The position numbers were made by a program, and so were the translations under genes. From positions 9,332 to 73,331 of the forward strand of contig CAZITO010000003.1 of the NCBI GenBank assembly GCA_964542225.1: DNA of 64,000 nt, in the 5' to 3' direction. This document shows, one piece after another, positions 5,062-21,629 of this stretch. The notes beneath the pieces are model-generated. The model had not been told where the DNA came from. It ran no database searches and saw nothing but the letters and a program-made list of their open reading frames with translations. Source of the DNA: an uncultured Bacteroidaceae bacterium. Lineage in GTDB: Bacteria > Bacteroidota > Bacteroidia > Bacteroidales > P3. Position 1 is the stretch's first letter. Each line of letters starts with the position of its first letter.

Positions 5062-6075
5062 CTATTTGAAAGACAATGGTCTAATTTTCATCTCGTAGTC
5101 AGATGAACTTTTATCAATATACATTTCAAATTCAGCCAGCCCCTTTTCAAATGCAATTCGATGTAATATCTTTTTGTTAATATCTGAAATCCGGGCACCG
5201 TAATAAATCCCTACCGGAGCATACTTTAAGTGCGGATGCGAATCAAGCATGTTGTTTGTGTTGATTAAACGCCATTCTTTTTCATATTCCCAGTCAGGAG
5301 ATTTGTAGAGTGAAGACTTAATTGAGTCAAGCATATCTAATCTTTTCACTGGTATTCCGATATTTTTGCCCAAGCATGAGGCTAACAGGTTGGTTGCATC
5401 GAATCTTATGGATGAATATATTACTGGCATTACCATAATATTTCCTGAAGGACTACTTATAAGAGGTCTCATATCATAAGAAAGAGCAAAACCCTTATGA
5501 TAATCCGCATAATGCCCCCACATTGTTATAGATGAAATGGCTTCGCTGAAGCAAGCGAATGAGTTACTGTTACGTAGTTCCACCTCAAAAAAGTGCACTC
5601 GCTTCTTTTGTTCATTTACTATTTGTGTAAATTTATCCAGATCGTTAACATCTGGACTGTCCTTCGACTTCTCTCTTAGAGATGCAACCAGATTCTTCAA
5701 TAAGTCTGACGGAAATACATTTCTGATATGTTCCGGAATCTCATATCCTTCAATGAGTAATTGACGAAACACACTCATTAAAGAAAACTGACTTTGGGGG
5801 TCGGTATTTAGAATTGTCTCTAAACTTTGGGCAGTTAATAAGCTGTCGTATGGGTCATTGAAATCTTTGGCACGAGAGCAAAAAATTAAACCTTTATCCA
5901 ATGCATTAAGAGAATATTTGTTTATAGTGCGAAAGCGAAATAATAGAGGCGGCATGATTTCCATTAAAGTATTGCCAATTGGCTGTAAGTATTTAGCAGT
6001 ATCAGCACACTCTTCTGGAATTGTAGTATTTTCCAATAGCCTATCTAATTTATCCATATTCAATGTATTATTCAT
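5062..6075 (-). CDS. DUF2971 family protein
   Basis: 337-aa intact ORF. The central motif ITMWGHYADYHKGFALSYD matches the remembered MW-x-HYA...KG signature of DUF2971, a family common in defence islands. Confidence 0.6.
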   Translation of the reverse strand: MNNTLNMDKLDRLLENTTIPEECADTAKYLQPIGNTLMEIMPPLLFRFRTINKYSLNALDKGLIFCSRAKDFNDPYDSLLTAQSLETILNTDPQSQFSLMSVFRQLLIEGYEIPEHIRNVFPSDLLKNLVASLREKSKDSPDVNDLDKFTQIVNEQKKRVHFFEVELRNSNSFACFSEAISSITMWGHYADYHKGFALSYDMRPLISSPSGNIMVMPVIYSSIRFDATNLLASCLGKNIGIPVKRLDMLDSIKSSLYKSPDWEYEKEWRLINTNNMLDSHPHLKYAPVGIYYGARISDINKKILHRIAFEKGLAEFEMYIDKSSSDYEMKIRPLSFK

Positions 6076-6083
6076 ACTATTTA

Positions 6084-7505
6084 TTAGAACACTTCTTCTT
6101 TTGCTCCGTTGACGATTGCGTCTATCTCATCGGCGATTTCATCTGATGAGAGTTTGATGTAGTCCATGAAGGTCTTTTGTGTCTTGTGGCTGCTGACGTG
6201 CATCATCTGTACGATGGTGAATTTGTGGGAGAGATACATATTGGTAATGCCACTGCGCCGGGCGGTGTGGGTAGTGACGCAATCGTAGCGGGGCATCATC
6301 ACTTCCCCTTTGTCGTTGCGCTCTACCGTCAGTTCTCCGGCTTTCTCCTTTTCTTTCTGTTTCATCGTGAGCTTTGTCGGCACCTTGACTGCAAGTGTCG
6401 GCACTTTCTCGGAGAGGTCTTTCAGTATTTCCTTTATGTACCGGTTCAGAATCTGGTCAACCACCGAGGGGAGATTATACTCGTATTTCTTGCAGATGGC
6501 TTCGAGGTTAGGATTCATTATCGGAATTTTCACCTCGTTGCGGGTCTTTTGTTGGACAAGGCGGATAATCGGACTCCCTTTTGCGGTTGTAGTGAAATCC
6601 TCAGGCTGGATGTTATTGTAGTCGCTAACGCGCTGACAGGTATAGCAACAACCAACAAGGAATATATCCCTTACTTGGTCTTTAAGACCCGTCAGCTCCA
6701 TTTCCGCCAATGCCTGCAACTCGGTTTCGGTAAGATAGATTTCGACAGCCTTGTCGCTTTCCTCAACCTTGCGTTTGGAGAAACAGCTCAACGCACGGTC
6801 ATTGTTGTGCAGTCCGTCCTCGTATGCGTAGCCCACCATAGCGAGGAAGGAAACAAGATACTTGTTGACAGAACTGCCCATGTAGTCGAGCTTCTGAAGA
6901 TGGTCGAGGAACTTCGTTACCAACGCACGGTCAACATCCGCCCATGTCAACCTGTAGCGCGGGTCGAAGCCGTTATAGAGTTTTCGGAAACTGCTCCATG
7001 CCTTGCAGCTTCCGGCGGTATAGCGGTTGTTACCGTTCAGCCGTTTGCCGGATTTTATCTCATCGACAAAACGGTCAAGAAAATTCCAGATATTCGCGCG
7101 TTCAGTTTCAGCGGCTATGCGAGCCTTTTCCGCTTCTTCACGTTGCCTTGCAATAGTTTCGGCTTCCTGCAGACGGCGCACAATCTCGGATTTCTCAGGG
7201 TCGGCGATAGCCATTATCTCATGCTTGACTTTTTCGCGGTCAAATTCCGGAGCCTCCATCTCACGTTTGAGCATAACCTCGATACGACCGAGCTTGTCAT
7301 GCAGTTTCGGGTATTCCTTACGATGTCCTGCCAATGCGTCCTCGCTCGACACTGCTACTTACCACTCTGGCACCGACACTCGGAGCCGAGTGGTAAACTG
7401 GACATCAATTTTGCGTATAGGGTCTTGCACCCTTATGAAAAGGGTCGCCTTATCCTTGTTCTCGTCTTTTTTGAGTAGATAGAATCTGGAGAGAGTCTTT
7501 GCCAT
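6084..7505 (-). pseudogene. Tyrosine recombinase / integrase with one in-frame TAA
   Basis: The ATG at 7505 gives MAKTLSRFYLLKKDENKDKATLFIRVQDPIRKIDVQFTTRLRVSVPEW*VAVSSEDALAGHRK... in the same frame as ORF 6084-7352. The TAA is at 7359-7361. The C-terminal catalytic region has HTARRSGITNMY (H-x-x-R) and HKTQKTFMDYIK (candidate Tyr). The gene is G+C-rich relative to the window. Confidence 0.75.
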
Positions 7506-7760: not shown

Positions 7761-8309
7761 CTACGATTTATTACAATTCACCAAAAATGGTGCTGTTACA
7801 CCAAACAATTCTGCCATTCTCTGCTGGGAAAGCCAGAATGTATTGGTATCAAAGATGACCTGTACTTGAGCTTTGCCTCGAACCACCTTGTAGAGAAGGA
7901 TGGTTGATTCCATACTAAGAGCTACCACTTCGCTCGTCACAGTAGAAGAGAAATACTCATGAGCGACTTTCATCATCTCCTTATTTTGATCGGCATTCAT
8001 AGAAATAGCTATACATGCAGCTCGTGAAAGTTTGATGCTTATAACTTCACGTACAGCACCACTTCCAAGCTCTGACATTTCGGTAAACTCCACGAAGTGC
8101 TCTCCAAGATGATAACCCTTCTGTGTTACCCAAGCCTGAGCCTTTGCCATCACACGCTCGAAGTTCCAGTACTTCCCATAGCCCATCACTCGCGCCAGTT
8201 TACGCGAGTTCCATCACTCCTTACCATCAACATCAACTTCACGCAGTTGCTCAAAAAGAGATTGGAGTTCGGGTACGTTTTTATTGTCTTGGATATTATC
8301 TTTGCTCAT
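7761..8309 (-). pseudogene. DinD-like (DNA-damage-inducible protein D family) domain joined to a RhuM N-terminal segment; in-frame TGA, 3'-truncated
   Basis: The ATG at 8309 gives MSKDNIQDNKNVPELQSLFEQLREVDVDGKE*WNSRKLARVMGYGKYWNFERVMAKAQ...SIKLSRAACIAISMNADQNKEM. This resembles the remembered DinD pattern (W-SAR-L...LGY..Y..F...A). The tail ILLYKVVRGKAQVQVIFDTNTFWLSQQRMAELFGVT is a RhuM N-terminus. The TGA is at 8214-8216. The reading frame degenerates toward 7690. Confidence 0.45.
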
Positions 8310-8422: not shown

Positions 8423-9697
8423 CTATAATATTGAATGAATATTTAACAGTTGCTGTTTTGCATCATCTATATCAAGCTCATTCGCCTCTGCATAATTTTT
8501 CATTAAAGTTCCTATCTCTTTAGGTGTTAGAAGATCTTTCTTGTATAAATAGATGAGCATATGGGAAATGTATGTTTTATATTTCATTACCATAGTCTGC
8601 GTCTTTGCATCCCATAAGAGATTAATCCAAGGCATCTCTGAAATTCTAAATTCAATTTTAGAGAAATTCTCTATTGCTTCATCTAATTCAATTCGCAACC
8701 TTATTTTTGTTTCGAATATAGCCTTAATTAACTTGGGTAATGCAACAGGCCTAAAATACAAAAATCCACCTATTTCCTTATTCCGATAATTTAATGCAGC
8801 TTTTTTATTATGGCAATTATCAACATATGAATTTACTTCGGGGAGTTTTTTAATAAAAAGATCCCAAAAGTTTAATAAGTAGCTATAAAAATCATCAATC
8901 TCCTGTTGATTAGGACGAAATTTGAGGAATTCAGCTATTCTTTTACCATTATAAATTTTCTTTTGGTGATCATTTTCAGACTTATAATAAGTATAAATTA
9001 TTTTATTAGTCTCATATAAAGTAATCAATGATGTAAATGATTTATCGTCATTATCAGCGAGGGCCTTGGAACTCTTCTTGTCAATTTTTACATTTTCATT
9101 CATAAAAAGTGGACAATTCTCAAGTAAGTCTCTTGTAGAAATGGCAACTACGTCATATTCATCAAGAGCAATAATATCTCCAAGACTTACAGGCTTAGCA
9201 TATCTATTTAAAGTTGAAAATATCCTTCTAGTTTTTTCTTTTCCATCTCGCGTATCGTGATGTCCAATGAAGATTACAGTAATAGTTTCATTTTCTAACA
9301 GGTGATTTGAGTTTAAAACGCTCGTAATTCCTTCAACTCGATGTTGTCCATCGACAGGAAATATACGTTCTTCACCATTAAGATGAAGAAACCCCATAGA
9401 ATAATGTCTGATACCGTTATACTCAAACTCTAACTCATTCCAAGTCTGGTCTCCATTATACACTGCTAGAACCAAAGCATTAAAGAAATGTTCCTTTTGA
9501 GTCAGAATATATTCAGTTATGCTTTTGTGGTTATCACTCAAAGCTCGTTGCAACTGTTCTCTTAATGATTTTGAAGTATGCAACTCTTCATCTGCAGGCT
9601 TGACTCTTTCTGCTATTTGTTTAAAGGTAAATGTTGCAGTATAATATGTTAATTCGCCAAGGGCTCCGCGAATAGCAGGTATATCAATGGCATTCAT
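8423..9697 (-). CDS. DGQHR-domain protein (DndB-like, ParB/sulfiredoxin-fold superfamily)
   Basis: 424-aa ORF with a literal DGQHR motif (ERIFPVDGQHRVEGI). An upstream QR-containing helix (LREQLQRALSDNHKSITEYI) and FSTLNRYAKPV match the remembered DndB/DGQHR layout. Confidence 0.8.
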   Translation of the reverse strand: MNAIDIPAIRGALGELTYYTATFTFKQIAERVKPADEELHTSKSLREQLQRALSDNHKSITEYILTQKEHFFNALVLAVYNGDQTWNELEFEYNGIRHYSMGFLHLNGEERIFPVDGQHRVEGITSVLNSNHLLENETITVIFIGHHDTRDGKEKTRRIFSTLNRYAKPVSLGDIIALDEYDVVAISTRDLLENCPLFMNENVKIDKKSSKALADNDDKSFTSLITLYETNKIIYTYYKSENDHQKKIYNGKRIAEFLKFRPNQQEIDDFYSYLLNFWDLFIKKLPEVNSYVDNCHNKKAALNYRNKEIGGFLYFRPVALPKLIKAIFETKIRLRIELDEAIENFSKIEFRISEMPWINLLWDAKTQTMVMKYKTYISHMLIYLYKKDLLTPKEIGTLMKNYAEANELDIDDAKQQLLNIHSIL

Positions 9698-9701
9698 ATA
9701 T

Positions 9702-10232
9702 TTAAAAAGCTTTTACAGTTTCTTTAACTTTATATTCTGTTAGGTCTGTATTAAATGGAGGCAGAATCGCCTGAATAAGAGCACTCTCACTCTGTTTAAT
9801 AAATTCATTATCCCTTGATTTGTAATAACGAATATATAAATGCTTCTTCCAATATTTAAATAATCTAACAATTCTTGTTCTACCATTTAGTTTCTCACTT
9901 TCTGGTAGATATGATTTTACACGTGAGCGTAAATTCTCTGATTCTGTACATCGTGCTCGTCCAATGTACGCTAGATAACGTTCACAAAAAGGTAAGCTAC
10001 AACCTTGAATAAAGAATACGTATATACCACCATAATCTTTCGGTAGATTTTTGACTTCATCTGACACCTTATTATCGTCATTCAGATATTTTATATAATC
10101 TGACCAATTCTCCTGAGAGTGAAAATTTGAAGTAATATGGGCATTTTTGGACCAGAGTTCAGGATGTAGATAATAGCGACAATCGTACTTCTTTATCTCA
10201 TCATTTTTCTCTACAAATGCATCAATATTCAT
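9702..10232 (-). CDS. GIY-YIG-like nuclease-fold protein (tentative)
   Basis: 176-aa ORF. It has YGGIYVFF (GIY), 14 aa later LAYIGRA (YIG), then LRSRVKSY (conserved Arg), and distal SESALIQAILPPFN (E...P..N). The order and spacing fit the GIY-YIG core. Confidence 0.5.
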   Translation of the reverse strand: MNIDAFVEKNDEIKKYDCRYYLHPELWSKNAHITSNFHSQENWSDYIKYLNDDNKVSDEVKNLPKDYGGIYVFFIQGCSLPFCERYLAYIGRARCTESENLRSRVKSYLPESEKLNGRTRIVRLFKYWKKHLYIRYYKSRDNEFIKQSESALIQAILPPFNTDLTEYKVKETVKAF

Positions 10233-10244
10233 ACTACAGATTAT

Positions 10245-11675
10245 TTATTTTATCCAGAACTCTGGCATTGTTGTTTTGAACTCTGCATCAATATAATGGC
10301 ATTGCTCCTTAATAATACCGCGTCTACGAATAGCTGGCTGTAAACAATACATATCAAAATCATCCTTATTGACATCTGATACACTTACCCAATGTGGGAA
10401 TAATAACTTCATATATGCTACAGCAATACGCTTTACTGCATTATAATCACGCGTATCTGCATTTTTATCATATCCTACTAACTCCTCAAACAATAATCCA
10501 TATATATTTTGAGTACGAAGCGAATGTAGTATCTCCGAAAAATATTCGACGTTAATAGTCCATCCCTTATAGATAATACCCTTGTTAATGCGAGGCAAGT
10601 GCCATCCTTCAATAAAACAATGAAAACGATCTAACAAAGCAGACTCGCGAAATGACTGAGGTAAGGAGTCAAAATATCTATAATTTAGTGGTCGTCTTTG
10701 ATCACTCAAAGGAATATTTCCCATAAGCATCAAACCACATTCCGAGCTGAATTCATTATTATCAATTGTTGTTTTTCCAGACTCTAAATATGATTTCAAT
10801 GCAGCCTGTATCTCTGCTGGTTCTTGAAAAATGATTGTTTGTATTTCATCAAAAGCAGTAAAATCATGGTTTTTAATTATACCATTCTGTTGTTTGGCCT
10901 TATCATAAAATAACTTTGCTCTTGTAACTTTTCCTCCACTTACAAGCCAACCATATTTAGACAGGTTGCCAAAAACAAAAGATTTTCCAGTTCCTTTGGG
11001 AGCCAACTCTATTACATTTAATCTTGGTTCAATGAATATCAGCAAACGAGTTAAAAACTCTAACTTCTCAGTCATTGTATTAAATCCATCCGCCTCATAT
11101 TCCATTGCAGATAATAATACATCAATCCATTCTTGAGTTGAGAATACTTTTCTAGCATCTCTTAGATATTCAAGGTCTACAGAGCGATATGGCTTGAATG
11201 GCTTGTAATCAACCATCTCGACATGGTTCTTCTTACCATCCTCGTCGGGTAGAACTGACAATTTAATGATACCCCATTTTTCACCATCTACAAGCTCTCC
11301 CGTATGGTTCTTATAAACATATTCTGGAATTTGCCCATCATTGATTTTAATACTCAGATCAGGAATTCCAAATCTACGAATACCCTTTACCAAATCTATG
11401 TATATAATAAACCTAGTCAACAATGTTATTTCTTCTCCAGCAGACAATCTATCTTTGACATCTGTCTGTTTCTGAGGTATAACCATATCAAGGAAATTTG
11501 TAAGCCCATCACGATTGACAACTCCATCATTGCTTATATAGCGTTTGAGGATGAAGTCTTTTACGAAGGATGGCAAATTGCGTCCAGCAAATAAACTATT
11601 GGTAGATGCTGGATCTTTATATATTGCCATAGAAGCAAATTGCTCCCTTATTTTCTGACTTGTTACTTCATTCAT
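10245..11675 (-). CDS. brxL: Short BrxL-like AAA+ ATPase (BREX Lon-like protein family, no protease domain evident)
   Basis: 476-aa ORF. The N-terminus REQFASMAIYKDPAS...GRNLPSFVKDFILKRY resembles the BrxL N-terminal signature. It has a P-loop LAPKGTGKSF and Walker B FTAFDEIQ. The length fits the ~470-aa family that I recall co-occurring with PglZ. Confidence 0.7.
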   Translation of the reverse strand: MNEVTSQKIREQFASMAIYKDPASTNSLFAGRNLPSFVKDFILKRYISNDGVVNRDGLTNFLDMVIPQKQTDVKDRLSAGEEITLLTRFIIYIDLVKGIRRFGIPDLSIKINDGQIPEYVYKNHTGELVDGEKWGIIKLSVLPDEDGKKNHVEMVDYKPFKPYRSVDLEYLRDARKVFSTQEWIDVLLSAMEYEADGFNTMTEKLEFLTRLLIFIEPRLNVIELAPKGTGKSFVFGNLSKYGWLVSGGKVTRAKLFYDKAKQQNGIIKNHDFTAFDEIQTIIFQEPAEIQAALKSYLESGKTTIDNNEFSSECGLMLMGNIPLSDQRRPLNYRYFDSLPQSFRESALLDRFHCFIEGWHLPRINKGIIYKGWTINVEYFSEILHSLRTQNIYGLLFEELVGYDKNADTRDYNAVKRIAVAYMKLLFPHWVSVSDVNKDDFDMYCLQPAIRRRGIIKEQCHYIDAEFKTTMPEFWIK

Positions 11676-11677
11676 AA

Positions 11678-14098
11678 TTAAAACCCTCCAAATAGATCAT
11701 CTTCATCAATACCAGTCCTAATAATTAACGAATCAGACTGGGTATAATCATTAATTTTTAATACAATCTGTGTAGACGTTTCTACAAGATTTAGACGTTC
11801 ACTTTCGTATGTACAATTATCGGTTTTGATTAATGAGTAATCTACACCATTATATTTTACACTTGGCGTATCAACTGTTGAAAGCCCTTTTATCCTATAT
11901 TTTACAATAGGTTTAGATGCAGATATCTCATTATCGATTAGAGATGCAGAATATGTACTTGCATTCTTTTTGCTTGAAACTATAATAATAGGAACAAGAA
12001 CCTCTTCAGGAGTGCATCCGCCATGCGCTCCTAATCCATTAGGAGTCTTGGACGTTAATGAATCATAGTTCAAGGAACACATAGTTTTCTGATCTTCTAG
12101 AACAATGTATGATGAATCGTCGCCTATATTGCTATTTTGCAATGTTGCGCATCGTCCAGAATGACCTGACTTAATTCCTGCTATATTTAATCCCTTGCCA
12201 TATTGTGCCATATAACTGATGCCATGATCAGACACAAACGCAATCTTTTTACCGTTATATTGTGCAAGAACGGAGGATATAGCCTTTTTTATAATTTCAA
12301 ACTCGTCAATTATATAATTAGGATAGGATTTGTGTCTATGGGAACATGTGTCTAAATCGCCTATCTTTTTTAATATATTCGGTGAAGAAATCTCATCCAA
12401 TTTAACCTTGTTTATCTCGGTCGTTGATGGTAATTCTGCCACACCAATATGTACTTCGTTCAAGTAAACACCATCTACTTGATGTTTCTTTATTTGCTCT
12501 ATTAAAAACGGAATCCAATCAACTCCAAGGCCATCTATCCAATAGTATACATCAATATCTTCCCTGTTGTGTAATATTGTTTTTACAGTCTTAAAGTTGT
12601 TATACCATATCTCAAACGAGGTCGATGAAGAATTTTTATCTAAAATCAATTGAGAAATCAAATCTGTTGGTCTATTGGAGATTTTAGATTTGCGGTATTC
12701 ATCCATGTATGAATTAATCCAAATATTCTCAGTATCTACATTTAATTTGGATAAAGATGTATATGAATATAATTCTGGATACAAAAACTGAATTTTTTCT
12801 CTTGAAATTAAACCTCGTCCTAACCACTCTATCATTAGCTGTCGTTCAGAGTATGTTAAAGGTGTAATATATTTCATCGCAGTCTGATATCCTCGTTCAG
12901 GATCTATGGCGATTGAATTCAACTTACTATAAACCTTGTTTTCTGCAAGTTCCGTGATTTTAACATCAAATTTCATCGCTTCCATCAACATTATTCTGCG
13001 TTCCTGAAGCGATTCTTCATTCAATGGTTCTTCATAAATCAATGTTTCTAGCAGAGAAAACAATTCAGTAGTACTTTGTGAATTACATAGTCTTAGAACT
13101 CTATTTAGATAACTCTCTTCACCATTTTTAAATAGATAATAGTTCTTAAGCAACCAGCGTGAAAAATCATCTTGATATTCAAACCAAATATGTATGAAAT
13201 CAATTTCGTTGTTAAGAACATACGAATTAAATCTCTTGTGTACGAATGATTCAAAGGTAAATGTTGATATATCGATATTAGACGCAAGTTGTTCCCAATA
13301 CTTAATATCTTCATGTCCTAATTGTAGACAGCCAAAATCAAACTCAAGTCCTTTTGTAAGAAACTCAAATACGTTGCTACAAATCACATAATCGAAAGCA
13401 TTATCAGGATGTGCATTATGAGCGTTGTCAAAAATCGTTTTTGAACTACAAATTATTTGATTCTTAACCTTATTGCCAACTTTCCATAAAGCAATCCATT
13501 CTCTCATATTGCGACAAATGGTAAATTTCTCATCTAACGATTGTATCCCATACGTACTATTGTTTGTCAATATGAGTTTATATTTAGCAGTATTTTTTCC
13601 AGAACGATACTCCCAAATATGAATGTTAGGATCACTTTTGAAGTGATTCATTTTACTTTGCATCCCAATAATTGGAATGTATACTCTTTGATGGTCTAAT
13701 TGTGCTTCTTCTGGAGAAGATATCAATCTGATTGTTTTAACTAATGAATTAAATTCTTTATAATGCTCATTATCATAGAATCTAGTTATCTCAGAAAATG
13801 GAGCAATTACAAAATCGTTAGATGGAAGGTGTTCTATATACTCGTTAAATCTATCTGCTAATTGTGAATATGTCATTAACTCATCATCATTGCCCTCGTC
13901 CATCCATTTGTCCATACCTTGCACAAAAACGCAATGATTACTACATTCTTGTACGAATGCATTAAAATCATTAAAGCTCTCAAATAAGACAAAGCGTAGT
14001 GGATAACGGTTACGGAGAGAGCACTCTGCGCCTGTCCAATTTTTATCTATCTCAATTTCTTGATATAGTTCCTCTACAGAATCAATGACCTTGTACAT
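11678..14098 (-). CDS. pglZ: PglZ-domain protein (alkaline-phosphatase fold)
   Basis: 806-aa ORF. The C-terminal half has YYWIDGLGVDWIPF and AFVSDHGISY...HGG, the metal-ligand motifs typical of PglZ / alkaline-phosphatase superfamily domains. Confidence 0.8.
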   Translation of the reverse strand: MYKVIDSVEELYQEIEIDKNWTGAECSLRNRYPLRFVLFESFNDFNAFVQECSNHCVFVQGMDKWMDEGNDDELMTYSQLADRFNEYIEHLPSNDFVIAPFSEITRFYDNEHYKEFNSLVKTIRLISSPEEAQLDHQRVYIPIIGMQSKMNHFKSDPNIHIWEYRSGKNTAKYKLILTNNSTYGIQSLDEKFTICRNMREWIALWKVGNKVKNQIICSSKTIFDNAHNAHPDNAFDYVICSNVFEFLTKGLEFDFGCLQLGHEDIKYWEQLASNIDISTFTFESFVHKRFNSYVLNNEIDFIHIWFEYQDDFSRWLLKNYYLFKNGEESYLNRVLRLCNSQSTTELFSLLETLIYEEPLNEESLQERRIMLMEAMKFDVKITELAENKVYSKLNSIAIDPERGYQTAMKYITPLTYSERQLMIEWLGRGLISREKIQFLYPELYSYTSLSKLNVDTENIWINSYMDEYRKSKISNRPTDLISQLILDKNSSSTSFEIWYNNFKTVKTILHNREDIDVYYWIDGLGVDWIPFLIEQIKKHQVDGVYLNEVHIGVAELPSTTEINKVKLDEISSPNILKKIGDLDTCSHRHKSYPNYIIDEFEIIKKAISSVLAQYNGKKIAFVSDHGISYMAQYGKGLNIAGIKSGHSGRCATLQNSNIGDDSSYIVLEDQKTMCSLNYDSLTSKTPNGLGAHGGCTPEEVLVPIIIVSSKKNASTYSASLIDNEISASKPIVKYRIKGLSTVDTPSVKYNGVDYSLIKTDNCTYESERLNLVETSTQIVLKINDYTQSDSLIIRTGIDEDDLFGGF

Positions 14099-14104
14099 AA
14101 TTGA

Positions 14105-17100
14105 CTATGAATTAATTTTATCCAACAACCATTCATTATTGGTATCACATAACTTTAAAAGCATATCTTTCGCTTCATCCAATGAGGAAATCTTAGATAT
14201 TCTTTCTTTTGCTTTCAGACGCTTTTCAGACACAACGTCAGGGTTAATGACTGGCTGCTCATTAGGTTTGCTTGGCTCAACATGAATAGGCTCATTCGCT
14301 AAGTTTTGTTTCTTTAGCCTCCATTTTAAGGCAGATGTATTTACTTCTTCTTCTGTCCAATAACCAACAGTTGATTCAAGATACCCTGTAATAAAATTCC
14401 TAACTTCCTCAATCTCACTTTCTTTGATATTGAGATCTTCTATTTGCATCAAGAAATTCTTGAAGCCATCATTAAATGCAGCATCAACATTGAGGATATT
14501 CTTCATTTCTATCCTCAATTCTTCTATTAAAGATAATGTTTGATTTACAAGAGCTGGATTACGTAGTTCACGCTCCATACAAATTTGAACAATATCATCA
14601 ATCAAAGTCTTTATGCTATCGCTAATAGAAACAGTTATAGGCAAACTTGCAAATGCTGAAGAGGAAGCATACTTCAATGTCCACAAAGGATTATTTTTCT
14701 TAGCCAGGAAGTCACCTGTTATGGCAAAACGAGCATCTTTCAAACTTGTAACATCGGAATAAGTATTTCCTTTGTTATTCAATTTGAATAAAGATATCAA
14801 CTCTTTACACAATTTACCTTCTTCAGGAGTTTGGAATTTGAAGTTCAGTTTGTTATTTGACTTATTGTCATCCCATACCTTAAACAACAGCACAATATCA
14901 TCGATAAGAGCATTGGCATCTCTCGGTTTACCTTGTGGATCAAATACCTTATTGACCCAAGGTCTAAGAGCGAAAGCCATAATACCCATAGCAGCAAAAC
15001 TACCATAAAAACCATATGGTGGCTGTGTTAGTATTGAGAATTTATCATCAAAGTTAAATGGCAGACTCTTATCTGCATACTTGATAATCTTATTTACTTT
15101 ATCACATGCTGCCTTAAACGGATGATCATCCGAAACTTCTGATTTCCAATTAAGGTTTTCATCCAAGCAATCTTGAATTAGATATTGCACTGGACGCATT
15201 TGCTGATTGATGCTAATGAACTCACTTTTCGTTGTTGCAAAAAGAAAAGTTCTTACCATTTCCTTAGAGTTCTGTTGTTTCCAGAATGTCAAAGGTGCTT
15301 TTTGTCTTAATATCTCATGTGCGTCTGGTCCATAAGGGAAGATAACAGGTGTTATAGATGAATTAACTATAGAAGATAAATGCTTTACAGAAATAGGTCG
15401 CTTATCTTCTCCATTAATATATACAGTAGCATTATTCCTTTGAACAGATTCCATCCATTCTTTAACCATTGCCATAGCATGGTCTTTATGAACCTTTTGC
15501 TGATCTAAAAATCCATGACTACTTGCACAAGCATAGTTTGCTTGAAATTCAACAAACTGCTCGTATTTGGCATCAGTCATCACTTCATCAAAGACAATAA
15601 AAACTATGTTCTTCAAGTCCCTATCATCTTCGTCAACTGAACATTTCTCTGCAAAAGTACGTAAAGTCGCTAATTCAGTATTATTGCGAGCTAACAATAA
15701 AGCAAAGAATAAGCTGCTACTTTTGTTCTCTTTCTTACCATTCTTGATTTGACTACGCAATTGAGATTCGTTTTGAACATCAGAATAGAACTTAAATGCA
15801 AATGGCCTAATGACTTTTTGCATAAATTTCTTCTCAAATATAGTCTTGGCGACATCCGAAAATTTAAGAATTTGGTGAGTAAAACGATATTGAACATTTC
15901 GCATCTCAATCTTTTTCTCCTCAATTTCTCCAGATGGTAATGCCGAGAATTGCACAGAGTAAAGGCCGCCAGGAGCGCGTTGAATTACACCATTCTCATT
16001 AAACCAATTAAGAATTCCATCAACAGTATCACCATAAGTTGTGCCTGCAAATAGTGAGCGAATGTTATCCTCGGAAGGTGTGACAAGTCCGTTATTATTT
16101 TCTCCTGAGACATTGTTAAATGCATTAAGTAAGAGAATACCCTTGAATACAGCAAAGTAATCATTTCCTATACTACTTACCAACTGCACATACGAGTTAT
16201 ATCGCTCGGTTACTGCACCATAGTTGGTAACATCATCTTGGAAAACTTTCAACACATAATCCCATAGATAATCGGCTGTGATTGTTTCTCCATTGAAGAA
16301 TAAATCCTCATTATCTAAAAAAGCTCTAATTGCATCATTTTGTCCTAAAAACTCAAATACACTTCGACTTGAGGAACCTACTACTGTAGCATAATGAGTT
16401 GCCAGATTCGCGGTTCCCGGATGTAGTGGGAATAAGTTTAATAAATCCTCTTTAGTTGATAATGTGTCATTACTTGTTGCTGTGAAGATTTCCAACAATT
16501 GTGGATTCATAGAGTAGAATGATTGGCTCATCTTTGAATGACGTTCTTTGTCTACAATCTCAAATTTTCTAGACATAATTTTAAATGCCGACACAGACTC
16601 CATGTTGTATTTCATTCGATGATATCTACCATCAGTCTGTTTTAATTGTTCCGAATCTATTCCATTAAATGCAGAAGGGTGAGAAATCAGGAATATATAT
16701 GAGTTATTATCCTCATTCATAAATTTCTCAGCAACATCCTGTAACTCTTTAAGTACAGGCACACCGATAGGATCTGTCATCACATCAGTAAACTCATCCC
16801 AGATAATTAACAGTCCATTGTACTCACCTAATTCGACTAATTTATCTTGTACTTCAATCAACCATTGCTTTAGGCTCTCGTTATTCATTCTAACATCCAA
16901 ACCCGCAACGCGCAAAGTGTCAGTTACACGATGGAACGTACCAAGATCGCCAGTCGTGAGTTTTGAAATAAGTTGTTCTGTTGTGGATACGATGGATGAT
17001 AGAAGTGTACTAGTCTCTATTCTATGTTTCCAAATTTCTGGCTCCTTATTGATTTGTTCAATGTAATTTTCGAAATCAGTGGGGACACAAATATTAATTC

Positions 17101-17551
17101 CATTATTCTTCAAAGTAGATGTAACCGCTTTTTGAAGAAGCAATGCAAGGTCAGATGTATGAGTCATTGCCCCCAAGCCATATAACTTAACAGGTAACAA
17201 TCTCTTTTCTTCTCGTAGTTTATATATGGCTTGACGAATAGAATCAAATTTGCTGTCACCAAATTCATAATCTACCCATTCTCTAATGCCATCTATATCA
17301 TCACACAATAAGTGGCTTATTACAGCGACAGCGTGACTTTTACCTGTACCATAGGTGCCATTAATCCAGAATGACTTATGATTATCAATATCATTGCCAC
17401 GAACTGACTTAAGTACAGTCCGTAGAACGCTATTAAACTGTTCGTTTGGAATAAAGGATGTCCATTCTCCGTCTTTTTCGTCTGCAATGACATAGGCAGC
17501 TTTACCGCCACGCAGTTTTATTATATCGCCATACTTAGTAGCCATAGCCAA
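14105..17551 (-). CDS. brxC: BrxC/PglY-like large P-loop ATPase (DUF499-type)
   Basis: 1148-aa ORF. It has Walker A FWINGTYGTGKSHAVAV near the N-terminus and Walker B-like LLIIWDEFTD. Its size and its position between the PAPS-reductase protein and PglZ match the BREX type 4 layout. Confidence 0.7.
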   Translation of the reverse strand: MAMATKYGDIIKLRGGKAAYVIADEKDGEWTSFIPNEQFNSVLRTVLKSVRGNDIDNHKSFWINGTYGTGKSHAVAVISHLLCDDIDGIREWVDYEFGDSKFDSIRQAIYKLREEKRLLPVKLYGLGAMTHTSDLALLLQKAVTSTLKNNGINICVPTDFENYIEQINKEPEIWKHRIETSTLLSSIVSTTEQLISKLTTGDLGTFHRVTDTLRVAGLDVRMNNESLKQWLIEVQDKLVELGEYNGLLIIWDEFTDVMTDPIGVPVLKELQDVAEKFMNEDNNSYIFLISHPSAFNGIDSEQLKQTDGRYHRMKYNMESVSAFKIMSRKFEIVDKERHSKMSQSFYSMNPQLLEIFTATSNDTLSTKEDLLNLFPLHPGTANLATHYATVVGSSSRSVFEFLGQNDAIRAFLDNEDLFFNGETITADYLWDYVLKVFQDDVTNYGAVTERYNSYVQLVSSIGNDYFAVFKGILLLNAFNNVSGENNNGLVTPSEDNIRSLFAGTTYGDTVDGILNWFNENGVIQRAPGGLYSVQFSALPSGEIEEKKIEMRNVQYRFTHQILKFSDVAKTIFEKKFMQKVIRPFAFKFYSDVQNESQLRSQIKNGKKENKSSSLFFALLLARNNTELATLRTFAEKCSVDEDDRDLKNIVFIVFDEVMTDAKYEQFVEFQANYACASSHGFLDQQKVHKDHAMAMVKEWMESVQRNNATVYINGEDKRPISVKHLSSIVNSSITPVIFPYGPDAHEILRQKAPLTFWKQQNSKEMVRTFLFATTKSEFISINQQMRPVQYLIQDCLDENLNWKSEVSDDHPFKAACDKVNKIIKYADKSLPFNFDDKFSILTQPPYGFYGSFAAMGIMAFALRPWVNKVFDPQGKPRDANALIDDIVLLFKVWDDNKSNNKLNFKFQTPEEGKLCKELISLFKLNNKGNTYSDVTSLKDARFAITGDFLAKKNNPLWTLKYASSSAFASLPITVSISDSIKTLIDDIVQICMERELRNPALVNQTLSLIEELRIEMKNILNVDAAFNDGFKNFLMQIEDLNIKESEIEEVRNFITGYLESTVGYWTEEEVNTSALKWRLKKQNLANEPIHVEPSKPNEQPVINPDVVSEKRLKAKERISKISSLDEAKDMLLKLCDTNNEWLLDKINS

Positions 17552-18001
17552 CTATTGTTTTGTTAAGAATCGTGTTATTATATTTCTTCTTATATATTCT
17601 CTACTCTCTGCATCTTGCAATATTTCCCACAACTCATCATCGAATTTCGCATACAAGAGATTTTCTCTTAAATATTTTTCCGAAGGCGTATCACCATTAT
17701 ACGGTGGACGATTCTTCTCATACCAAACAAGATGATAAAAATCAGATGAACCAAGATGGTAATAAGGCAATATTATTGGAGTTAACTTTACTTCTTTATA
17801 ATATCTTGCAAAAGCAGTATATATATCTTTTAATCTGTTATCATTGAACATTATTTTATTTTCATCCAAATCCCCCATAGCAATACATGCAAGGATAGAT
17901 AGAATAAACAACGGTTTGGCAATAGATTTTCCAGATATGCCATTACCACACTTAATGCTCAAAATTAAATCGTTATATAAATTTACAGTATAAGAATTCA
18001 T
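17552..18001 (-). CDS. Small stand-alone protein resembling the N-terminal DNA-reader domain of SBD-HNH (ScoMcrA-type) enzymes (tentative)
   Basis: 149-aa ORF. SIAKPLFILSILACIAMGDLDENKIMFND..L...Y...LPYYHLGSSDFYHLVW...FDDELWEIL....REYIRRNIITRF follows the remembered pattern hKPhLLLshh..h..G.h..N.I...P[FY][FY]HL....FWhL seen N-terminal to HNH nucleases. Its stop overlaps or abuts the neighbouring genes. Confidence 0.35.
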   Translation of the reverse strand: MNSYTVNLYNDLILSIKCGNGISGKSIAKPLFILSILACIAMGDLDENKIMFNDNRLKDIYTAFARYYKEVKLTPIILPYYHLGSSDFYHLVWYEKNRPPYNGDTPSEKYLRENLLYAKFDDELWEILQDAESREYIRRNIITRFLTKQ

Positions 18002-20514
18002 TAGTCTAAAAGTGCTTTCAACACAGCAATTGAGGTTAAATCTTCTCTTAGGGTTATATGATCCAATCCCATATTCAACTCTGTAATAAGTACCCTGTTT
18101 TTTTTAGAAGACAAATATCTCAAACTTTTCATTAAATCATTTTTACTAATACCGAATTCTTTATATACACCATATGACTCATCTGAACGATATAAGTCAG
18201 ATACTCTAAACATTTTTATATCATTGTATTGAGCATATCTGTATATTGAATAAGCAATTGCCTCAGGATTTAAATCAGTATAATTATCTCGTCTATATGA
18301 ATTGCCTTTTTCTTCTTGTACGACACATTGATGAAACTCTTCACCAATTGGAGAATATTTAAAACTTTGCATTAAAGCCTGAATTGCATATGTAATAGTC
18401 GTTTCCTTAAATGTTTGCTGAAAATACTCAATCGCTAGTTTGTCTAAACTTTTGCGTGAAAATTCCGTCATATGTGCAAATGTCTTAATATACCATCTAA
18501 CAAGTGGACTATTATATGCTAGATTAATGTATATAAGCTCCCACAATAAAGTTGTAGAATTTTTATTTATCTCAACACACAATTCACCAAATGGAGTTAG
18601 GCAGTTTTTATCATCAATAATTTCCGCATCTTTTAACCATGCTTTAAAACTTGGAACTTGCTTAACTCCGAGCACATTGTCTGACCAAAAATCCGAGGGG
18701 GATGATAAATATTGATCTACCCACTCTTGATGTATTCCAAATGTTCCGTATTTTGATATTTTCATATTTGATATATTGGTATCTGTTGGTTTTAACATTG
18801 AATCTGCTACAATACATCCAACATTGTGGTACTCTAAACATTTATGGCAATGCGTGCAAAGTTCTTTATTTATCACGACTTCAGGATACACAGACAAGAC
18901 TCCTGTAGGGCATTCAAGTTCACAAGCTTCGCAATTGATGCAATAAGATGTTTTATTGATCATACGACGAAGATAGTATCGTAACTGAATGTTATTGTTG
19001 TCATATAAGATAAATGAAAAATCAGACTTATTCTCGCCATAACGGACCTCAAATTGAAAGACTTCTTTCTCAAATAATAATTCTCCAGTAGTTACATTAT
19101 TCCTATCGCTTATACTGTATTTCCCGACAGCATGAAGCCAAGTAAATACATCTTTTTGTGCGTCCTTAACTTTTGCTTCCCATCTAGTTGATGAGGATAT
19201 ATATTGAACAGATGTTGTAGATTGAGAAAATTTACCACTACCTCTCAATCGCCATCGTCTATCAGATATATATTCATCTTTGTTAGGTATTTTTCGTTCT
19301 TCCACAACACGTTCTATCCTAGACAAAAATGGTTGTAAATTATCAGGATAACATTTACTCACAATCATATCATCCCAAGGAGAACCAAATGGACACAAAA
19401 TACATCCAACTCTAGGTTTTCCACAGCGATAGGCATTGTTAATGGGTAGCTGATGTCTAAATAAATACAAGAAAACTTCCGTAGTATTCCATCTTAAAAT
19501 TGGACGTGCATTTATAACAAAGCTATGTTTTACCCCTTTGCCAATACGATTATAATCACTTCGCTTCGCAGATTCTTCCGCACGTACTCCTTCAAAAGCT
19601 AAAAATTTTGCATTCTTTCGATATCCTTGCTTTAGCATACGATATAATGGAGCTGTTTTCATTACTGAACAACACCAACGATGTGTATCACTAGGAGTAC
19701 CAATCTTATCCCAATAATTAAGTACAGACTCGTGATTACGGACCATTAGGAATTTAAGCGCAGGAAATTTCTGCTTATAATATTCCTGAACCTCTTCATA
19801 CAAACTTAATGAAGGTGGGAGTTCATATCCAGTATCGCTGTAAATTACTTCAAAATCTGTAGGTGGAATAGTGCGTGTACACAAGTCTAAAACCACCTGA
19901 CTGTCTTTACCTCCAGAAAAGGACGCAATAAACCTATCAATTTTAGTTGACAATAAAGCCTTTTTACCTTCCGACTCTGCCACATCCATTGGCATTATAT
20001 CGAAACTGTCACAATCTTGTTTAACAATGACCATCCTCTTTTTGCTATTTTTCTCCAGCTTATTAGCCATTGCCTCAAAATCTAACTTATTGGCATCTGC
20101 TTTATTGTATGTTTTGTTTACCTTGGTATATTCTGTGTATATATCCCGAATAAACTCTATTGCTTCGTTTTCTAAAACAAACATCAAATCAGAAGTTCGT
20201 TTCAACATCTTTTTCATATCTACAGGGATTAAGTCCATTGGTTTAATCCCTGTATTAAAGTCAAGAGTCGGTTCTATATATATATTGGCACCTTTAGCAT
20301 CAAAGATATGCTTGCCACGGTAATAATATTGTTTGTTGACTGCCCACATTATTGGCTCCTCGCAATGAGGATAATTCCAACCATGTTCATTCAACCTTAA
20401 CAAATCCAGTTCTTCATAAAACACAGGGCGTGGCGGTATGCCAATCGTGCCGTCTACAATGCGAGGATGCAACAATACTCCTCCCGTCTCTTCGTCCCAC
20501 GTTATTTTGTACAT
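18001..20514 (-). CDS. brxP: BrxP-like PAPS-reductase/PP-loop ATP pyrophosphatase (DndC-like) with a 2x[4Fe-4S] ferredoxin-type insert
   Basis: 837-aa ORF. It has the PP-loop FIASFSGGKDSQVVLDL, then HRWCCSVMKTAP and AFEGVRAEES as in PAPS reductase/DndC-type enzymes. It also has CINCEACELECPTGV...CTHCHKCLEYHNVGC (two CxxCxxC-type clusters). About 190 aa at the N-terminus and about 230 aa at the C-terminus are unassigned. Confidence 0.8.
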   Translation of the reverse strand: MYKITWDEETGGVLLHPRIVDGTIGIPPRPVFYEELDLLRLNEHGWNYPHCEEPIMWAVNKQYYYRGKHIFDAKGANIYIEPTLDFNTGIKPMDLIPVDMKKMLKRTSDLMFVLENEAIEFIRDIYTEYTKVNKTYNKADANKLDFEAMANKLEKNSKKRMVIVKQDCDSFDIMPMDVAESEGKKALLSTKIDRFIASFSGGKDSQVVLDLCTRTIPPTDFEVIYSDTGYELPPSLSLYEEVQEYYKQKFPALKFLMVRNHESVLNYWDKIGTPSDTHRWCCSVMKTAPLYRMLKQGYRKNAKFLAFEGVRAEESAKRSDYNRIGKGVKHSFVINARPILRWNTTEVFLYLFRHQLPINNAYRCGKPRVGCILCPFGSPWDDMIVSKCYPDNLQPFLSRIERVVEERKIPNKDEYISDRRWRLRGSGKFSQSTTSVQYISSSTRWEAKVKDAQKDVFTWLHAVGKYSISDRNNVTTGELLFEKEVFQFEVRYGENKSDFSFILYDNNNIQLRYYLRRMINKTSYCINCEACELECPTGVLSVYPEVVINKELCTHCHKCLEYHNVGCIVADSMLKPTDTNISNMKISKYGTFGIHQEWVDQYLSSPSDFWSDNVLGVKQVPSFKAWLKDAEIIDDKNCLTPFGELCVEINKNSTTLLWELIYINLAYNSPLVRWYIKTFAHMTEFSRKSLDKLAIEYFQQTFKETTITYAIQALMQSFKYSPIGEEFHQCVVQEEKGNSYRRDNYTDLNPEAIAYSIYRYAQYNDIKMFRVSDLYRSDESYGVYKEFGISKNDLMKSLRYLSSKKNRVLITELNMGLDHITLREDLTSIAVLKALLD

Positions 20515-20518
20515 CTCC

Positions 20519-20719
20519 TTATTCTATAATTACTAATTGTGATAGTTCAACATCAAGGAGTTTCGCTATCTTAATATATGTTTCCATTGTTGTCTGACAA
20601 GCATTCGTGCACCACTTTGAATCAGTTGTAGGTGCACATCCTAATTGTTCATCCAGCCATTTATTTGTTCTTTTCTTCTCAGCAAGAACAACCTTGAGTC
20701 TATTTATATCCTTATCCAT
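20519..20719 (-). CDS. XRE-family helix-turn-helix transcriptional regulator
   Basis: 66-aa ORF INRLKVVLAEKKRTNKWLDEQLGCAPTTDSKWCTNACQTTMETYIKIAKLLDVELSQL. This is the small Bacteroidales XRE HTH pattern (KWLAEQLG...VSKWCTN...L.KIAK.L.V). It lies 4 nt upstream of brxP. Confidence 0.8.
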   Translation of the reverse strand: MDKDINRLKVVLAEKKRTNKWLDEQLGCAPTTDSKWCTNACQTTMETYIKIAKLLDVELSQLVIIE

Positions 20720-20738
20720 AATAGTCTATTTGTTGTAC

Positions 20739-20746
20739 AAAATTAA
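20739..20746 (-). promoter_or_regulatory. Candidate -7 box (TAATTTTG) for the 8-gene operon
   Basis: The minus strand reads TATTAATTTTGTACAACAAATAGACTATT-ATG. TAnnTTTG is the Bacteroidota primary-sigma -7 consensus. A 6-bp palindrome ATCCTT-N6-AAGGAT lies just upstream at about 20751-20768. Confidence 0.5.
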
Positions 20747-20780: not shown

Positions 20781-21629
20781 TTAATTTGCATTCACGGGAA
20801 TTAAATTAGCTAAGGCGGAAGTCATTAGAATACATAGTGAAGTGATTTGTTCTGTAACATTGCTAGATATAGACTGTAACTCTGTATTGGTTCCAGCAAT
20901 CATTTGCTGAACATTAGTCTTTTGTTCTTCAAGCAGACCTGTAGAAAGTGAAGACATTTTATCTGTCAAAGTCTCAAGAGTATCCGCACACTTCTTGAAC
21001 TGCTATTCGCCAAAGGCTTTAATGTTCTGTTCAATCTGACCATGCATCTTAGTAAAGATGTCATCCATTCTTTTCACAAAGTCATTGATAAATTGTTAGA
21101 GAATCTTACTTTGTAGGCTAATAGTAGTATTGAGTCGTTCATTATAGACTTCATTTTTGGTACTTTGCTCTACAAGTTGCTGTGAAATTCTTGTTAGAGA
21201 TTCATTTGTTGTAGTTGACAACAGAGTAAGATTATATAGACACTCCTCTGGTGTTTGAAGGTTAATATTCTTTTCTAACTTTCGGTATTTGAATGAATAC
21301 AGTATTTTACATACGGCAGTAGCGATAAAGGCACAAATAAGACCTGCAATCGAAGAGGTAAAAGCTGGTACCAAATTTCGAATTATGGTATCTATTTCAA
21401 GCGAGTCCTGATTGATGTCGCCTAATGAACTACAAATAGCCACAAATGTTCCCAAGAGACCTAATGAAGTAAATAAGCCTGGTAAACTATTCAGTAATTG
21501 TCTGGATCTATTTTTATTGTATATCAATACAAAAATTACAGTTATCACAACGCATATAATAAACACTCTCTTACCTGTCAGTATTACGGCAAGTGGTTCT
21601 GGTAACCATTTGAATTCACTTTCTCTCAT
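20781..21629 (-). pseudogene. MotA/ExbB/TolQ-like membrane protein with a coiled-coil tail, two in-frame stops
   Basis: ORF 21096-21629 has TM segments and LFTSLGLLGTFVAI ... TSSIAGLICAFIA (MotA/ExbB-like). The same frame continues ...LQSKIL*QFINDFVKRMDDIFTKMHGQIEQNIKAFGE*QFKKCADTLETLTDKMSSLSTGLLEEQ... to 20781. The stops are TAA 21096-21098 and TAG 21003-21005. Confidence 0.55.

Follow-up and report, generated by a model that had tools for sequence, protein, structure and literature searches.

How bacteriophage exclusion (BREX) systems discriminate between self and non-self DNA and arrest phage is the question on which the locus analysed here bears. The locus is an eight-gene operon at positions 8423-20746 of a 64,000-nucleotide (nt) stretch of contig CAZITO010000003.1 from an uncultured Bacteroidaceae bacterium; we refer to this whole stretch as the window. 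From sequence and predicted structure, and with a probability of roughly 0.8, we interpret the operon as an intact, Bacteroidales-type BREX type 4 system, that is, a phosphorothioate (PT)-based, restriction-modification-like defence, a figure that refers to the identity of the system and of its parts. The roles that we propose below for two accessory elements, a sulfur-binding domain (SBD) protein and a two-gene GIY-YIG/DndB-like cassette, are tentative, and we place them somewhat short of an even chance. The core of the system is already known. What is new is the recognition that the small protein called 'McrA' in published work is a nuclease-free, predicted reader of PT, together with the cassette, which was not found described in the literature searched.

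The BREX type 4 core and its PT writer

The operon consists of eight minus-strand open reading frames (ORFs), and the junctions between neighbours range from a 1-nt overlap to a 12-nt gap (Table 1). The original prediction, which was made from the DNA letters and their translations, had described this packing and had assigned the locus to BREX type 4 on the basis of a PAPS reductase-like protein with cysteine clusters, a BrxC-type ATPase, PglZ and a short BrxL. Its coordinates and junctions are those of the ORFs, all of its quoted motifs are found in the translations (SFSGGKDS, HRWCC and two cysteine clusters in ORF2; GTYGTGKSH, the Walker A motif, in ORF4; DGLGVDW and SDHG in ORF5; APKGTGKSF and FDEIQ in ORF6; DGQHR in ORF8), and profile searches agree with both the core assignments and the BREX type. 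ORF2, BrxP, combines a PP-loop PAPS-reductase/ATP-pyrophosphatase domain (residues 196-375; Pfam PAPS_reduct, 1.9e-31), 4Fe-4S ferredoxin-like cysteine clusters (residues 518-562; Pfam Fer4, 1.7e-6) and a C-terminal, SspB-like DUF4007 domain (residues 618-832; Pfam, 7.4e-6). ORF4 gives weaker PADLOC matches to SspC alongside its match to BrxC, and ORF6 comprises BrxL_N and a Lon-like ATPase without a Lon protease domain (PADLOC BrxL, 5.6e-214). Every part that defines BREX type 4 is present, namely BrxP in place of PglX, BrxC/PglY, a type-4 PglZ and BrxL, with no methyltransferase in the operon. The last of these points, also made in the original prediction, extends to the surroundings, as methyltransferase families gave no match among the eight operon ORFs or the 20 flanking ORFs scanned.

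The counterparts of ORF2 to ORF8 in the homologous operons L001-L004 measure 837, 149, 1147, 806, 477, 176 and 424 aa, lengths that are those of the window ORFs, and the operon is therefore intact. The listed BrxC ORF opens at a TTG (MAMATKYG...); its homologs are one residue shorter and begin a few nt past the SBD stop codon, and the true start is probably the ATG two codons downstream of the TTG (17545).

The original prediction took BREX type 4 to be a class known by comparative genomics only, with no established chemistry. This view is outdated, since PT formation by BrxP and BrxC has been demonstrated genetically and by liquid chromatography-tandem mass spectrometry (LC-MS/MS) (PMC12914056); the accompanying idea that PT chemistry is involved was right. 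PT dinucleotides were detected by LC-MS/MS in Bacteroides salyersiae DSM 18765 (Yuan et al., bioRxiv June 2024; Nat Commun 2026, PMC12914056), which has a brx operon of seven genes and lacks both dnd and ssp genes. Deletion of brxC in this strain abolished PT and left the strain viable, a brxP deletion was reported as not obtained, and a brxP-mcrA-brxC construct restored PT in B. thetaiotaomicron, where brxC alone gave none (PMC12914056). BrxP is needed for PT synthesis and BrxC is essential for PT in B. salyersiae, while 'mcrA', brxZ, brxL and a downstream unknown gene are dispensable for PT; the study calls brxPCZL the fourth established PT system (PMC12914056). BREX type 4 is nowadays counted among the PT systems (PMC12839542).

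Loci related to the window were taken from a PglZ-4 alignment scan of species-representative genomes, as the best 80 of 182 matches, all of them Bacteroidales-type. The B. salyersiae locus itself (L049) is among these 80, and the closest loci among them come from Rikenellaceae/Bacteroidales metagenome-assembled genomes (MAGs; 93% PglZ identity) and from Gabonibacter massiliensis (79%). The B. salyersiae operon (brxR?-brxP-'mcrA'-brxC-brxZ-brxL-Bs02796) has the same gene order as the window from the helix-turn-helix (HTH) gene to brxL, with protein identities of 51% (HTH), 52% (BrxP), 37% (SBD), 54% (BrxC), 48% (PglZ) and 82% (BrxL). The two share the BrxP domain fusion and a standalone SBD gene between brxP and brxC, and neither has a methyltransferase or a cysteine desulfurase in the operon. 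They differ 3' of brxL, where B. salyersiae encodes a Schlafen-AlbA2/HATPase_c_4 protein and the window encodes the GIY-YIG/DndB-like cassette. The original prediction had not recognised a described system in the locus; the layout HTH-brxP-reader-brxC-pglZ-brxL is, however, that of the published operon, and only the pair at the 3' end was not found in the literature searched. A cysteine desulfurase was not found in the 64-kb window by tblastn, and a housekeeping enzyme must therefore supply the sulfur, as in B. salyersiae.

The writer belongs to the Ssp rather than to the Dnd lineage, with BrxP equivalent to SspD plus SspB and BrxC to SspC, a correspondence with SspABCD systems that is seen in PADLOC cross-matches and in PMC12914056. 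The alternative of a DndC-like writer following Dnd logic, as the original prediction had it, was considered and rejected: PADLOC SspD matches BrxP with 58 bits (2.7e-16) as against 30 bits (4.5e-8) for DndC, BrxP fails the DndC equivalog TIGR03183 (24.6 bits, cut-off 290) and also carries the DUF4007 of SspB, and BrxP is without the DndC-specific cysteine dyad (PMC12839542). Compared with SspABCD systems that have SspE, SspFGH or PbeABCD partners, this locus encodes PglZ and BrxL but lacks SspE, SspFGH and Pbe genes. These comparisons bear on the view, taken in the original prediction, that the locus is an undescribed and categorically new BREX/Dnd hybrid with no known chemistry. DndB-like and PAPS-reductase genes do co-occur here with PglZ, BrxC and BrxL, and the pair has not been found in the literature searched; however, the core and reader are those of a published, experimentally validated BREX-4 PT system, the writer is of the Ssp type rather than the DndC type, and dnd/ssp-brx gene islands have already been discussed (PMC12914056). 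We consider a new hybrid of this kind very improbable.

Table 1 Features of the operon and of its 3' flank, in window coordinates.
Feature	Position	Strand	Length	Evidence or remark
Candidate -7 box TAATTTTG	20738..20745	minus		Match to Bacteroidetes -7 promoter consensus TAnnTTTG; 18 nt upstream of ORF1 ATG
ORF1, XRE/Cro-C1-type HTH protein	20519..20719	minus	66 aa	Pfam HTH_26 E 3.8e-5, 24.3 bits (cut-off 22)
ORF2, BrxP	18001..20514	minus	837 aa	PADLOC BrxP 4.4e-273 over residues 1-835
ORF3, standalone SBD	17552..18001	minus	149 aa	Family profile against PDB 8h0l (SBD of Hga bound to PT-DNA), E 2.7e-17
ORF4, BrxC/PglY-type (SspC-like) ATPase	14105..17551	minus	1148 aa, counted from TTG	PADLOC BrxC E=0, 1035 bits, full length
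ORF5, PglZ, BREX-4 subtype phosphatase-fold protein	11678..14098	minus	806 aa	NCBIfam NF033445 BREX_PglZ_4 768 bits (cut-off 140); PADLOC PglZ 1.5e-198
ORF6, BrxL, short form	10245..11675	minus	476 aa	Pfam BrxL_ATPase 1.9e-114, BrxL_N 2.6e-23; TIGR02688 416 bits (cut-off 329)
ORF7, predicted GIY-YIG superfamily nuclease, unannotated family; first cassette gene	9702..10232	minus	176 aa	Transitive Pfam evidence, fold and catalytic residues
ORF8, DndB-like DGQHR (ParB/Srx-fold) protein; second cassette gene	8423..9697	minus	424 aa	Pfam DndB PF14072 5.3e-34, 118 bits (cut-off 29.1)
Exchanged cassette, relative to nearest relative L014	8285..10206	minus		Nucleotide alignments
rhuM-family gene, N-terminal fragment	7761..8189	minus		Follows the operon in relatives; cut in the window by an integrase-bearing insertion
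Insertion in rhuM			~6.2 kb	Contains the five features below
Integrase	6084-7352			Locally 45% GC
DUF2971	5062-6075			
AAA ATPase pieces	3267-4690			
AAA_15/AAA_21 ATPase	2031-3218			
OLD-like TOPRIM fragment	1683-1994			

A standalone sulfur-binding domain between brxP and brxC

ORF3, which the original prediction had called reader-like, proved to be a sulfur-binding domain. Its family is conserved, about 150 aa in length and without a Pfam domain. In Foldseek searches with its AlphaFold model (pLDDT 90.6), only SBD:PT-DNA complexes were significant, the best being 8h0l (E 1.2e-7, TM 0.78), followed by 5zmn, 7ccd and 5zmo (ScoMcrA, SprMcrA). The sulfur cavity of Hga comprises H25, K26, L75, P76 and H79, with only the methylene of H25 contributing (PMC10602919); profile alignment maps these residues to A28, K29, L78, P79 and H82 of ORF3, so that one of the five is substituted (H to A). 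Across 44 homologs, P79 is invariant and K29 and H82 are conserved in at least 90%.

The SBD fold and the sulfur-cavity residues are thus common to ORF3 and the PT-dependent type IV restriction enzymes ScoMcrA, SprMcrA and Hga. In contrast to these enzymes, which fuse the SBD to an HNH or PD-(D/E)XK domain, ORF3 is an SBD alone: the domain spans residues 20-141 of the 149, and profile searches returned no HNH match and no PD-(D/E)XK domain. In a survey of 1722 SBD homologs, the described clades are fused to HNH, PD-(D/E)XK or kinase domains (PMC10602919). ORF3 is therefore a nuclease-free SBD, predicted to read PT-DNA and not to act alone as a restriction enzyme. The same kind of protein is found in B. 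salyersiae, where 'McrA' is a 148-codon ORF that is 37% identical to ORF3 (E 4e-29); it has no nuclease domain and would therefore likewise be a reader and not a restriction enzyme by itself. PMC12914056 names the small gene 'mcrA' and treats it as a restriction component, whereas in our analysis it is an SBD alone and carries no nuclease domain, HNH or otherwise.

Of the 64 related loci that have both brxP and brxC, 36 carry an SBD gene between the two, and the 54 SBD matches in related loci are all short standalone ORFs. In most of the 28 loci without an SBD, brxP and brxC abut, with gaps of -12 to 128 nt. Concealment of the SBD by fusion to BrxP or BrxC in the SBD-less BREX-4 loci was considered and rejected, as none is fused in any of the 28. 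Two loci (L066 and L068) are exceptions to the abutting arrangement and carry about 1.4 kb extra between brxP and brxC and about 0.5 kb between pglZ and brxL. Extra SBD-only genes were also noted, divergent and upstream of brxP in two loci (L025:136-681(-) and L027:2409-2975(-)) and on the opposite strand after brxL in a third (L034:4111-4791(-)).

Co-variation of writer and reader receives no general support from the related loci: SBD identity correlates with BrxP identity at a Spearman coefficient of 0.68, as against 0.74-0.79 with BrxC, PglZ and BrxL. A single locus from a Bacteroidales MAG (L017) has an operon that is a mosaic relative to the window, with BrxC 86%, BrxL 96% and the HTH protein 88% identical, and BrxP 61%, SBD 52% and PglZ 70%. 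In this locus, the writer appears to have been replaced along with the reader, which hints at a recombination-driven change of PT specificity.

The GIY-YIG/DndB-like cassette

The first gene of the cassette, ORF7, falls below threshold in family searches when taken alone (GIY_YIG_2, 13.5 bits as against 22.4). Its family comprises about 551 clusters at 50% identity, all standalone and about 160-215 aa in length, and among 46 divergent members (23-37% identical to ORF7) GIY_YIG_2 is matched by 32 (best 1.3e-6) and PF01541 by 15 (best 9.8e-7). G69, Y71, Y89, G91, R104, Y108 and R118 are invariant across these 46 sequences, and E149 and N161 are conserved in at least 90%; the active site of R.Eco29kI consists of Y49, Y76, R104, H108, E142 and N154 (PMC1952068). 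The ORF7 model (pLDDT 84.6) has a beta-beta-alpha-alpha-beta-alpha core. The best PDB fold match is R.Eco29kI, which is weak (E 0.09, TM 0.44), and the search of the viral library BFVD returned a phage GIY-YIG protein (E 3.6e-4); we accepted the fold assignment only after this viral-library search and the transitive Pfam evidence. The family profile, when run against PDB sequences, gave spurious Kit-receptor matches only. ORF7 thus has in common with GIY-YIG nucleases of the R.Eco29kI/I-TevI type both the core and the catalytic set, the latter in near-identical spacing, and differs from them in a Tyr instead of His at R+4, an N-terminal extension of about 65 aa and the lack of a recognisable separate DNA-binding domain. 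The GIY-YIG-like call of the original prediction is upheld by these relatives and active-site columns, and we regard ORF7 as a putative GIY-YIG nuclease with its predicted catalytic residues intact.

The second gene, ORF8, had been called DndB-like from its literal DGQHR motif, and family models concur (PF14072, Table 1; TIGR03187 DGQHR, 101 bits, cut-off 58.85). Among 11 ORF8 homologs from both BREX-4 and Ssp/Pbe contexts, FPVDGQHRVEGI, TLNRYA and IALDE are invariant and the C-terminal half is variable. Assignment as a true DndB was rejected at the equivalog level (TIGR03233, 70 bits, cut-off 328), and a search against PDB sequences gave nothing meaningful. ORF8 shares the DGQHR motif and PF14072 with DndB of dndBCDE (TIGR03233) and with DpdB, and differs from them in lying at the 3' end of an Ssp-lineage system, always after the GIY-YIG gene and not followed by dndCDE. 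There is no dndC, dndD or dndE in the window, and ORF8 is the last gene of the operon.

These properties bear on a reading in which the pair acts on the modification side, ORF8 being a DndB-type negative regulator that limits PT density and ORF7 a nickase that assists or edits PT insertion. Such roles have precedents, as DndB is reported, in work cited in PMC10853773, to keep PT levels in check as an ATP-responsive repressor, and the Ssp pathway uses a nickase; moreover, the DUF4007 of BrxP has been modelled as a purely DNA-binding, BrxA-like module (PMC12839542), leaving room for a separate nicking activity. However, ORF8 fails the DndB equivalog model and stands at the 3' end rather than the head of an operon that already has an XRE regulator. 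Neither PT synthesis in B. salyersiae nor its reconstitution in B. thetaiotaomicron from brxP-mcrA-brxC involved such a pair, 90% of related loci are without it, and its strong diversification fits effectors or sensors better than housekeeping regulators. Given this balance, we judge a modification-side role to be improbable.

All 23 GIY-like genes in the fetched loci adjoin a DndB-like gene, usually overlapping it or lying 1-12 nt apart. The pair is found 3' of brxL in 6 of the 58 BREX-4 loci with enough downstream sequence, two of which (L058, L085) have a PglZ only 40-42% identical to that of the window, and look-ups of ORF7 homologs located it after brxL in two further loci as well (L012, L098; ORF7 51-58% identical). 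The most distant ORF7 homologs (43-48%) occur without BREX. In L094, L096 and L101, the pair is flanked on one side by PbeA (E = 0), a small gene, PbeC and a dnd_assoc_4-like gene and on the other by convergent SspD-SspC-SspB, with SspA upstream in L094 and L096. Loci L005-L007 have PbeA/PbeC-like genes upstream of the pair, and their contigs end at the DndB-like gene, which leaves them uninformative for the writer. The pair therefore seems to follow Ssp-lineage PT writers, whether BREX-4 or SspABCD, and not BREX as such. Because it adjoins writers of this lineage in both BREX-4 and Ssp/Pbe contexts, the question of chance juxtaposition is answered in the negative. As to the accessory genes being retained across homologous loci, this holds for the SBD (36/64) and, from the 6/58 loci together with the Ssp/Pbe loci, for the pair, but not for the pair as a fixed part of BREX-4.

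In three loci (L094:9447-9938, L096:9496-9999 and L101:5403-5912), the GIY-YIG gene is directly preceded by a gene for a protein of about 165 aa with a weak match to 'DNA phosphorothioation-associated protein 4' (TIGR04062/PF27807), and the cassette of Ssp/Pbe-linked loci may have a three-gene form. That the pair is simply SspFGH, SspE, DndFGH or PbeABCD under another name was rejected, as ORF7 has no PADLOC match and SspFGH is a Walker-A/translocase module.

Comparison with the nearest relatives indicates that the cassette is exchanged. The core proteins of L014 and L032 share 93-99% identity with those of the window, as against 47% for the GIY-like and 57% for the DndB-like protein. Nucleotide identity to L014 is about 97% across brxL and up to ~25 nt into ORF7, drops to about 55-60% and is back at about 90% from ~8285-8220 onward, which puts the 5' breakpoint ~25 nt inside ORF7 and the 3' breakpoint in the spacer after ORF8. 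ORF7 and ORF8 have thus been swapped as a unit by allelic replacement. The slot directly after brxL is variable across loci L014-L093, where it holds Schlafen-AlbA2+HATPase_c_4 proteins (~486 aa, including Bs02796), a 1044-aa SIR2_2 protein, AAA_15/AAA_21 or DUF4062 proteins, and 650-760-aa proteins with RNA-polymerase alpha-CTD or sigma region-4-like segments.

This variability is what would be seen if the pair were an autonomous two-gene defence or toxin-antitoxin-like module, occupying a recombination hot-spot after brxL and independent of both PT and BREX. The many unrelated defence-type genes in the same slot elsewhere, the occurrence of the pair in just 6/58 loci and its exchange independently of the core, with sharp breakpoints, all favour such a module, and standalone URI/GIY-YIG nucleases at Dnd-locus edges have been proposed as generic back-up suicide effectors (Rakesh et al. 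2024). Against independence, the pair always adjoins an Ssp-lineage PT writer (BREX-4 or SspABCD) in the roughly 12 lineages or contexts with a long enough contig, ORF7 lies on the same strand as brxL and 12 nt after it, and the DndB family is known only from PT (and Dpd) modification systems. We regard an autonomous module as possible, if on the unlikely side. The same evidence can be taken further in the other direction, such that the pair would be a previously unrecognised PT-coupled restriction/effector module, a partner class beside SspE, SspFGH, DndFGH and PbeABCD that fits any Ssp-lineage writer (SspABCD or BREX-4) and whose cassettes are exchanged under phage pressure; in this full form the proposal is speculative, and we rate it as unlikely.

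Island context and proposed mechanism

In relatives, the operon is followed by genes for RhuM, a relaxase, a NikA-like protein and an integrase. In the window, the rhuM-family gene is interrupted (Table 1): tblastn with the RhuM of L001 aligns residues 1-41 at 7919-7797 and residues 80-331 at 1610-852, and the insertion between them has the look of a second, small defence element. Housekeeping genes take over above ~21 kb. The operon lies within a defence island on or beside a mobile element and is itself probably mobile. Just upstream of the candidate promoter lie two short minus-strand ORFs (20781-20969 and 21096-21629), one of them weakly matching MotA_ExbB (E 6e-7); they resemble the remains of a single gene that was broken up at the island boundary. 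Bacteroidales-type BREX-4 operons with 40-60% PglZ identity also occur in MAG bins labelled Clostridiales, Lachnospiraceae, Oscillibacter, Acutalibacteraceae, Eubacteriales, Clostridia, Clostridium and Akkermansia (L021, L022, L024, L026, L029, L038, L040, L052, L062, L064 and L086), as a result of either mis-binning of a mobile island or cross-phylum transfer.

At the 5' end of the operon, the original prediction had identified a single TAATTTTG -7 box and an XRE regulator. The box is indeed present 5' of ORF1, but it is not single, as TAnnTTTG occurs 12 times on the minus strand within the operon and 81 times across the window. Since it is placed in the sole sizeable upstream intergenic region, we treat it as a promoter candidate on the strength of its position only. 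Scans for sigma-70 promoters and for terminators were uninformative, giving fewer matches than in shuffles, and sigma-70 is the wrong promoter type for Bacteroidetes. The assignment of ORF1 to the XRE type is confirmed by Pfam HTH_26, and an ORF1-homologous HTH gene directly precedes brxP in at least 18 of 61 related loci, that of B. salyersiae included (51% identity); ORF1 is a probable regulator of the operon.

Homology to the validated operon of B. salyersiae indicates that BrxP, an SspD-type PP-loop sulfurtransferase with a ferredoxin-like module and an SspB-like DUF4007 DNA-binding domain, acts together with BrxC to replace a non-bridging phosphate oxygen with sulfur. PT would be written at short motifs with partial occupancy, the sulfur coming from a housekeeping cysteine desulfurase. 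BrxC, PglZ and BrxL would then exclude DNA that does not carry the PT mark, and the XRE protein would regulate the operon. That a brxP deletion was not obtained in B. salyersiae while a brxC deletion was viable is consistent with a BrxC-dependent restriction activity that becomes toxic when PT is missing. The ORF3 SBD, co-translated between the writer and the ATPase, may bind PT on host DNA, most likely supplying or sharpening the 'self' signal for BrxC/PglZ/BrxL while being dispensable for writing. Least certain is the role of ORF7 and ORF8, which may constitute an add-on effector linked to PT status, in which the DndB-like protein, as a nucleoside triphosphate- or DNA-binding subunit, would control the GIY-YIG nuclease, and which would diversify by cassette exchange.

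Several points weigh against this interpretation. PT writing, its motif and phage exclusion in the window are all inferred from a homolog that is 48-54% identical in BrxP, BrxC and PglZ, and the evidence from B. salyersiae covers PT modification, not anti-phage activity of the Bacteroidales variants (PMC12914056). The SBD is absent from 44% of related BREX-4 loci and is therefore optional, not being needed for BREX-4 function in general; the same follows for the pair, which 90% of related BREX-4 loci are without. These frequencies describe the best 80 of the 182 matches, all Bacteroidales-type, and are not global. That the pair swaps independently of BrxP argues against its reading a BrxP-defined sequence motif, and unrelated cargo after brxL is the expectation for independent, hitchhiking defence genes. 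Finally, the nuclease activity of ORF7 is a prediction only, and ORF7 has Tyr at R+4, where most GIY-YIG enzymes have His.

The SBD and cassette findings leave the basic classification of the system unchanged. Their significance lies in the placing of a PT reader without a nuclease, labelled a McrA restriction enzyme in published work, between the writer and the ATPase in more than half of related operons. An unannotated GIY-YIG family, paired with a DndB-like protein and following Ssp-lineage PT writers, provides a second handle, and the natural near-isogenic islands that differ only in the cassette are ready material for swap experiments. If the proposed roles are true, BREX-4 would acquire, through the pair and through the SBD in the part of a dedicated reader of 'self', an explicit architecture of writer, reader and effector, and the self/non-self read-out of BREX would become directly testable.

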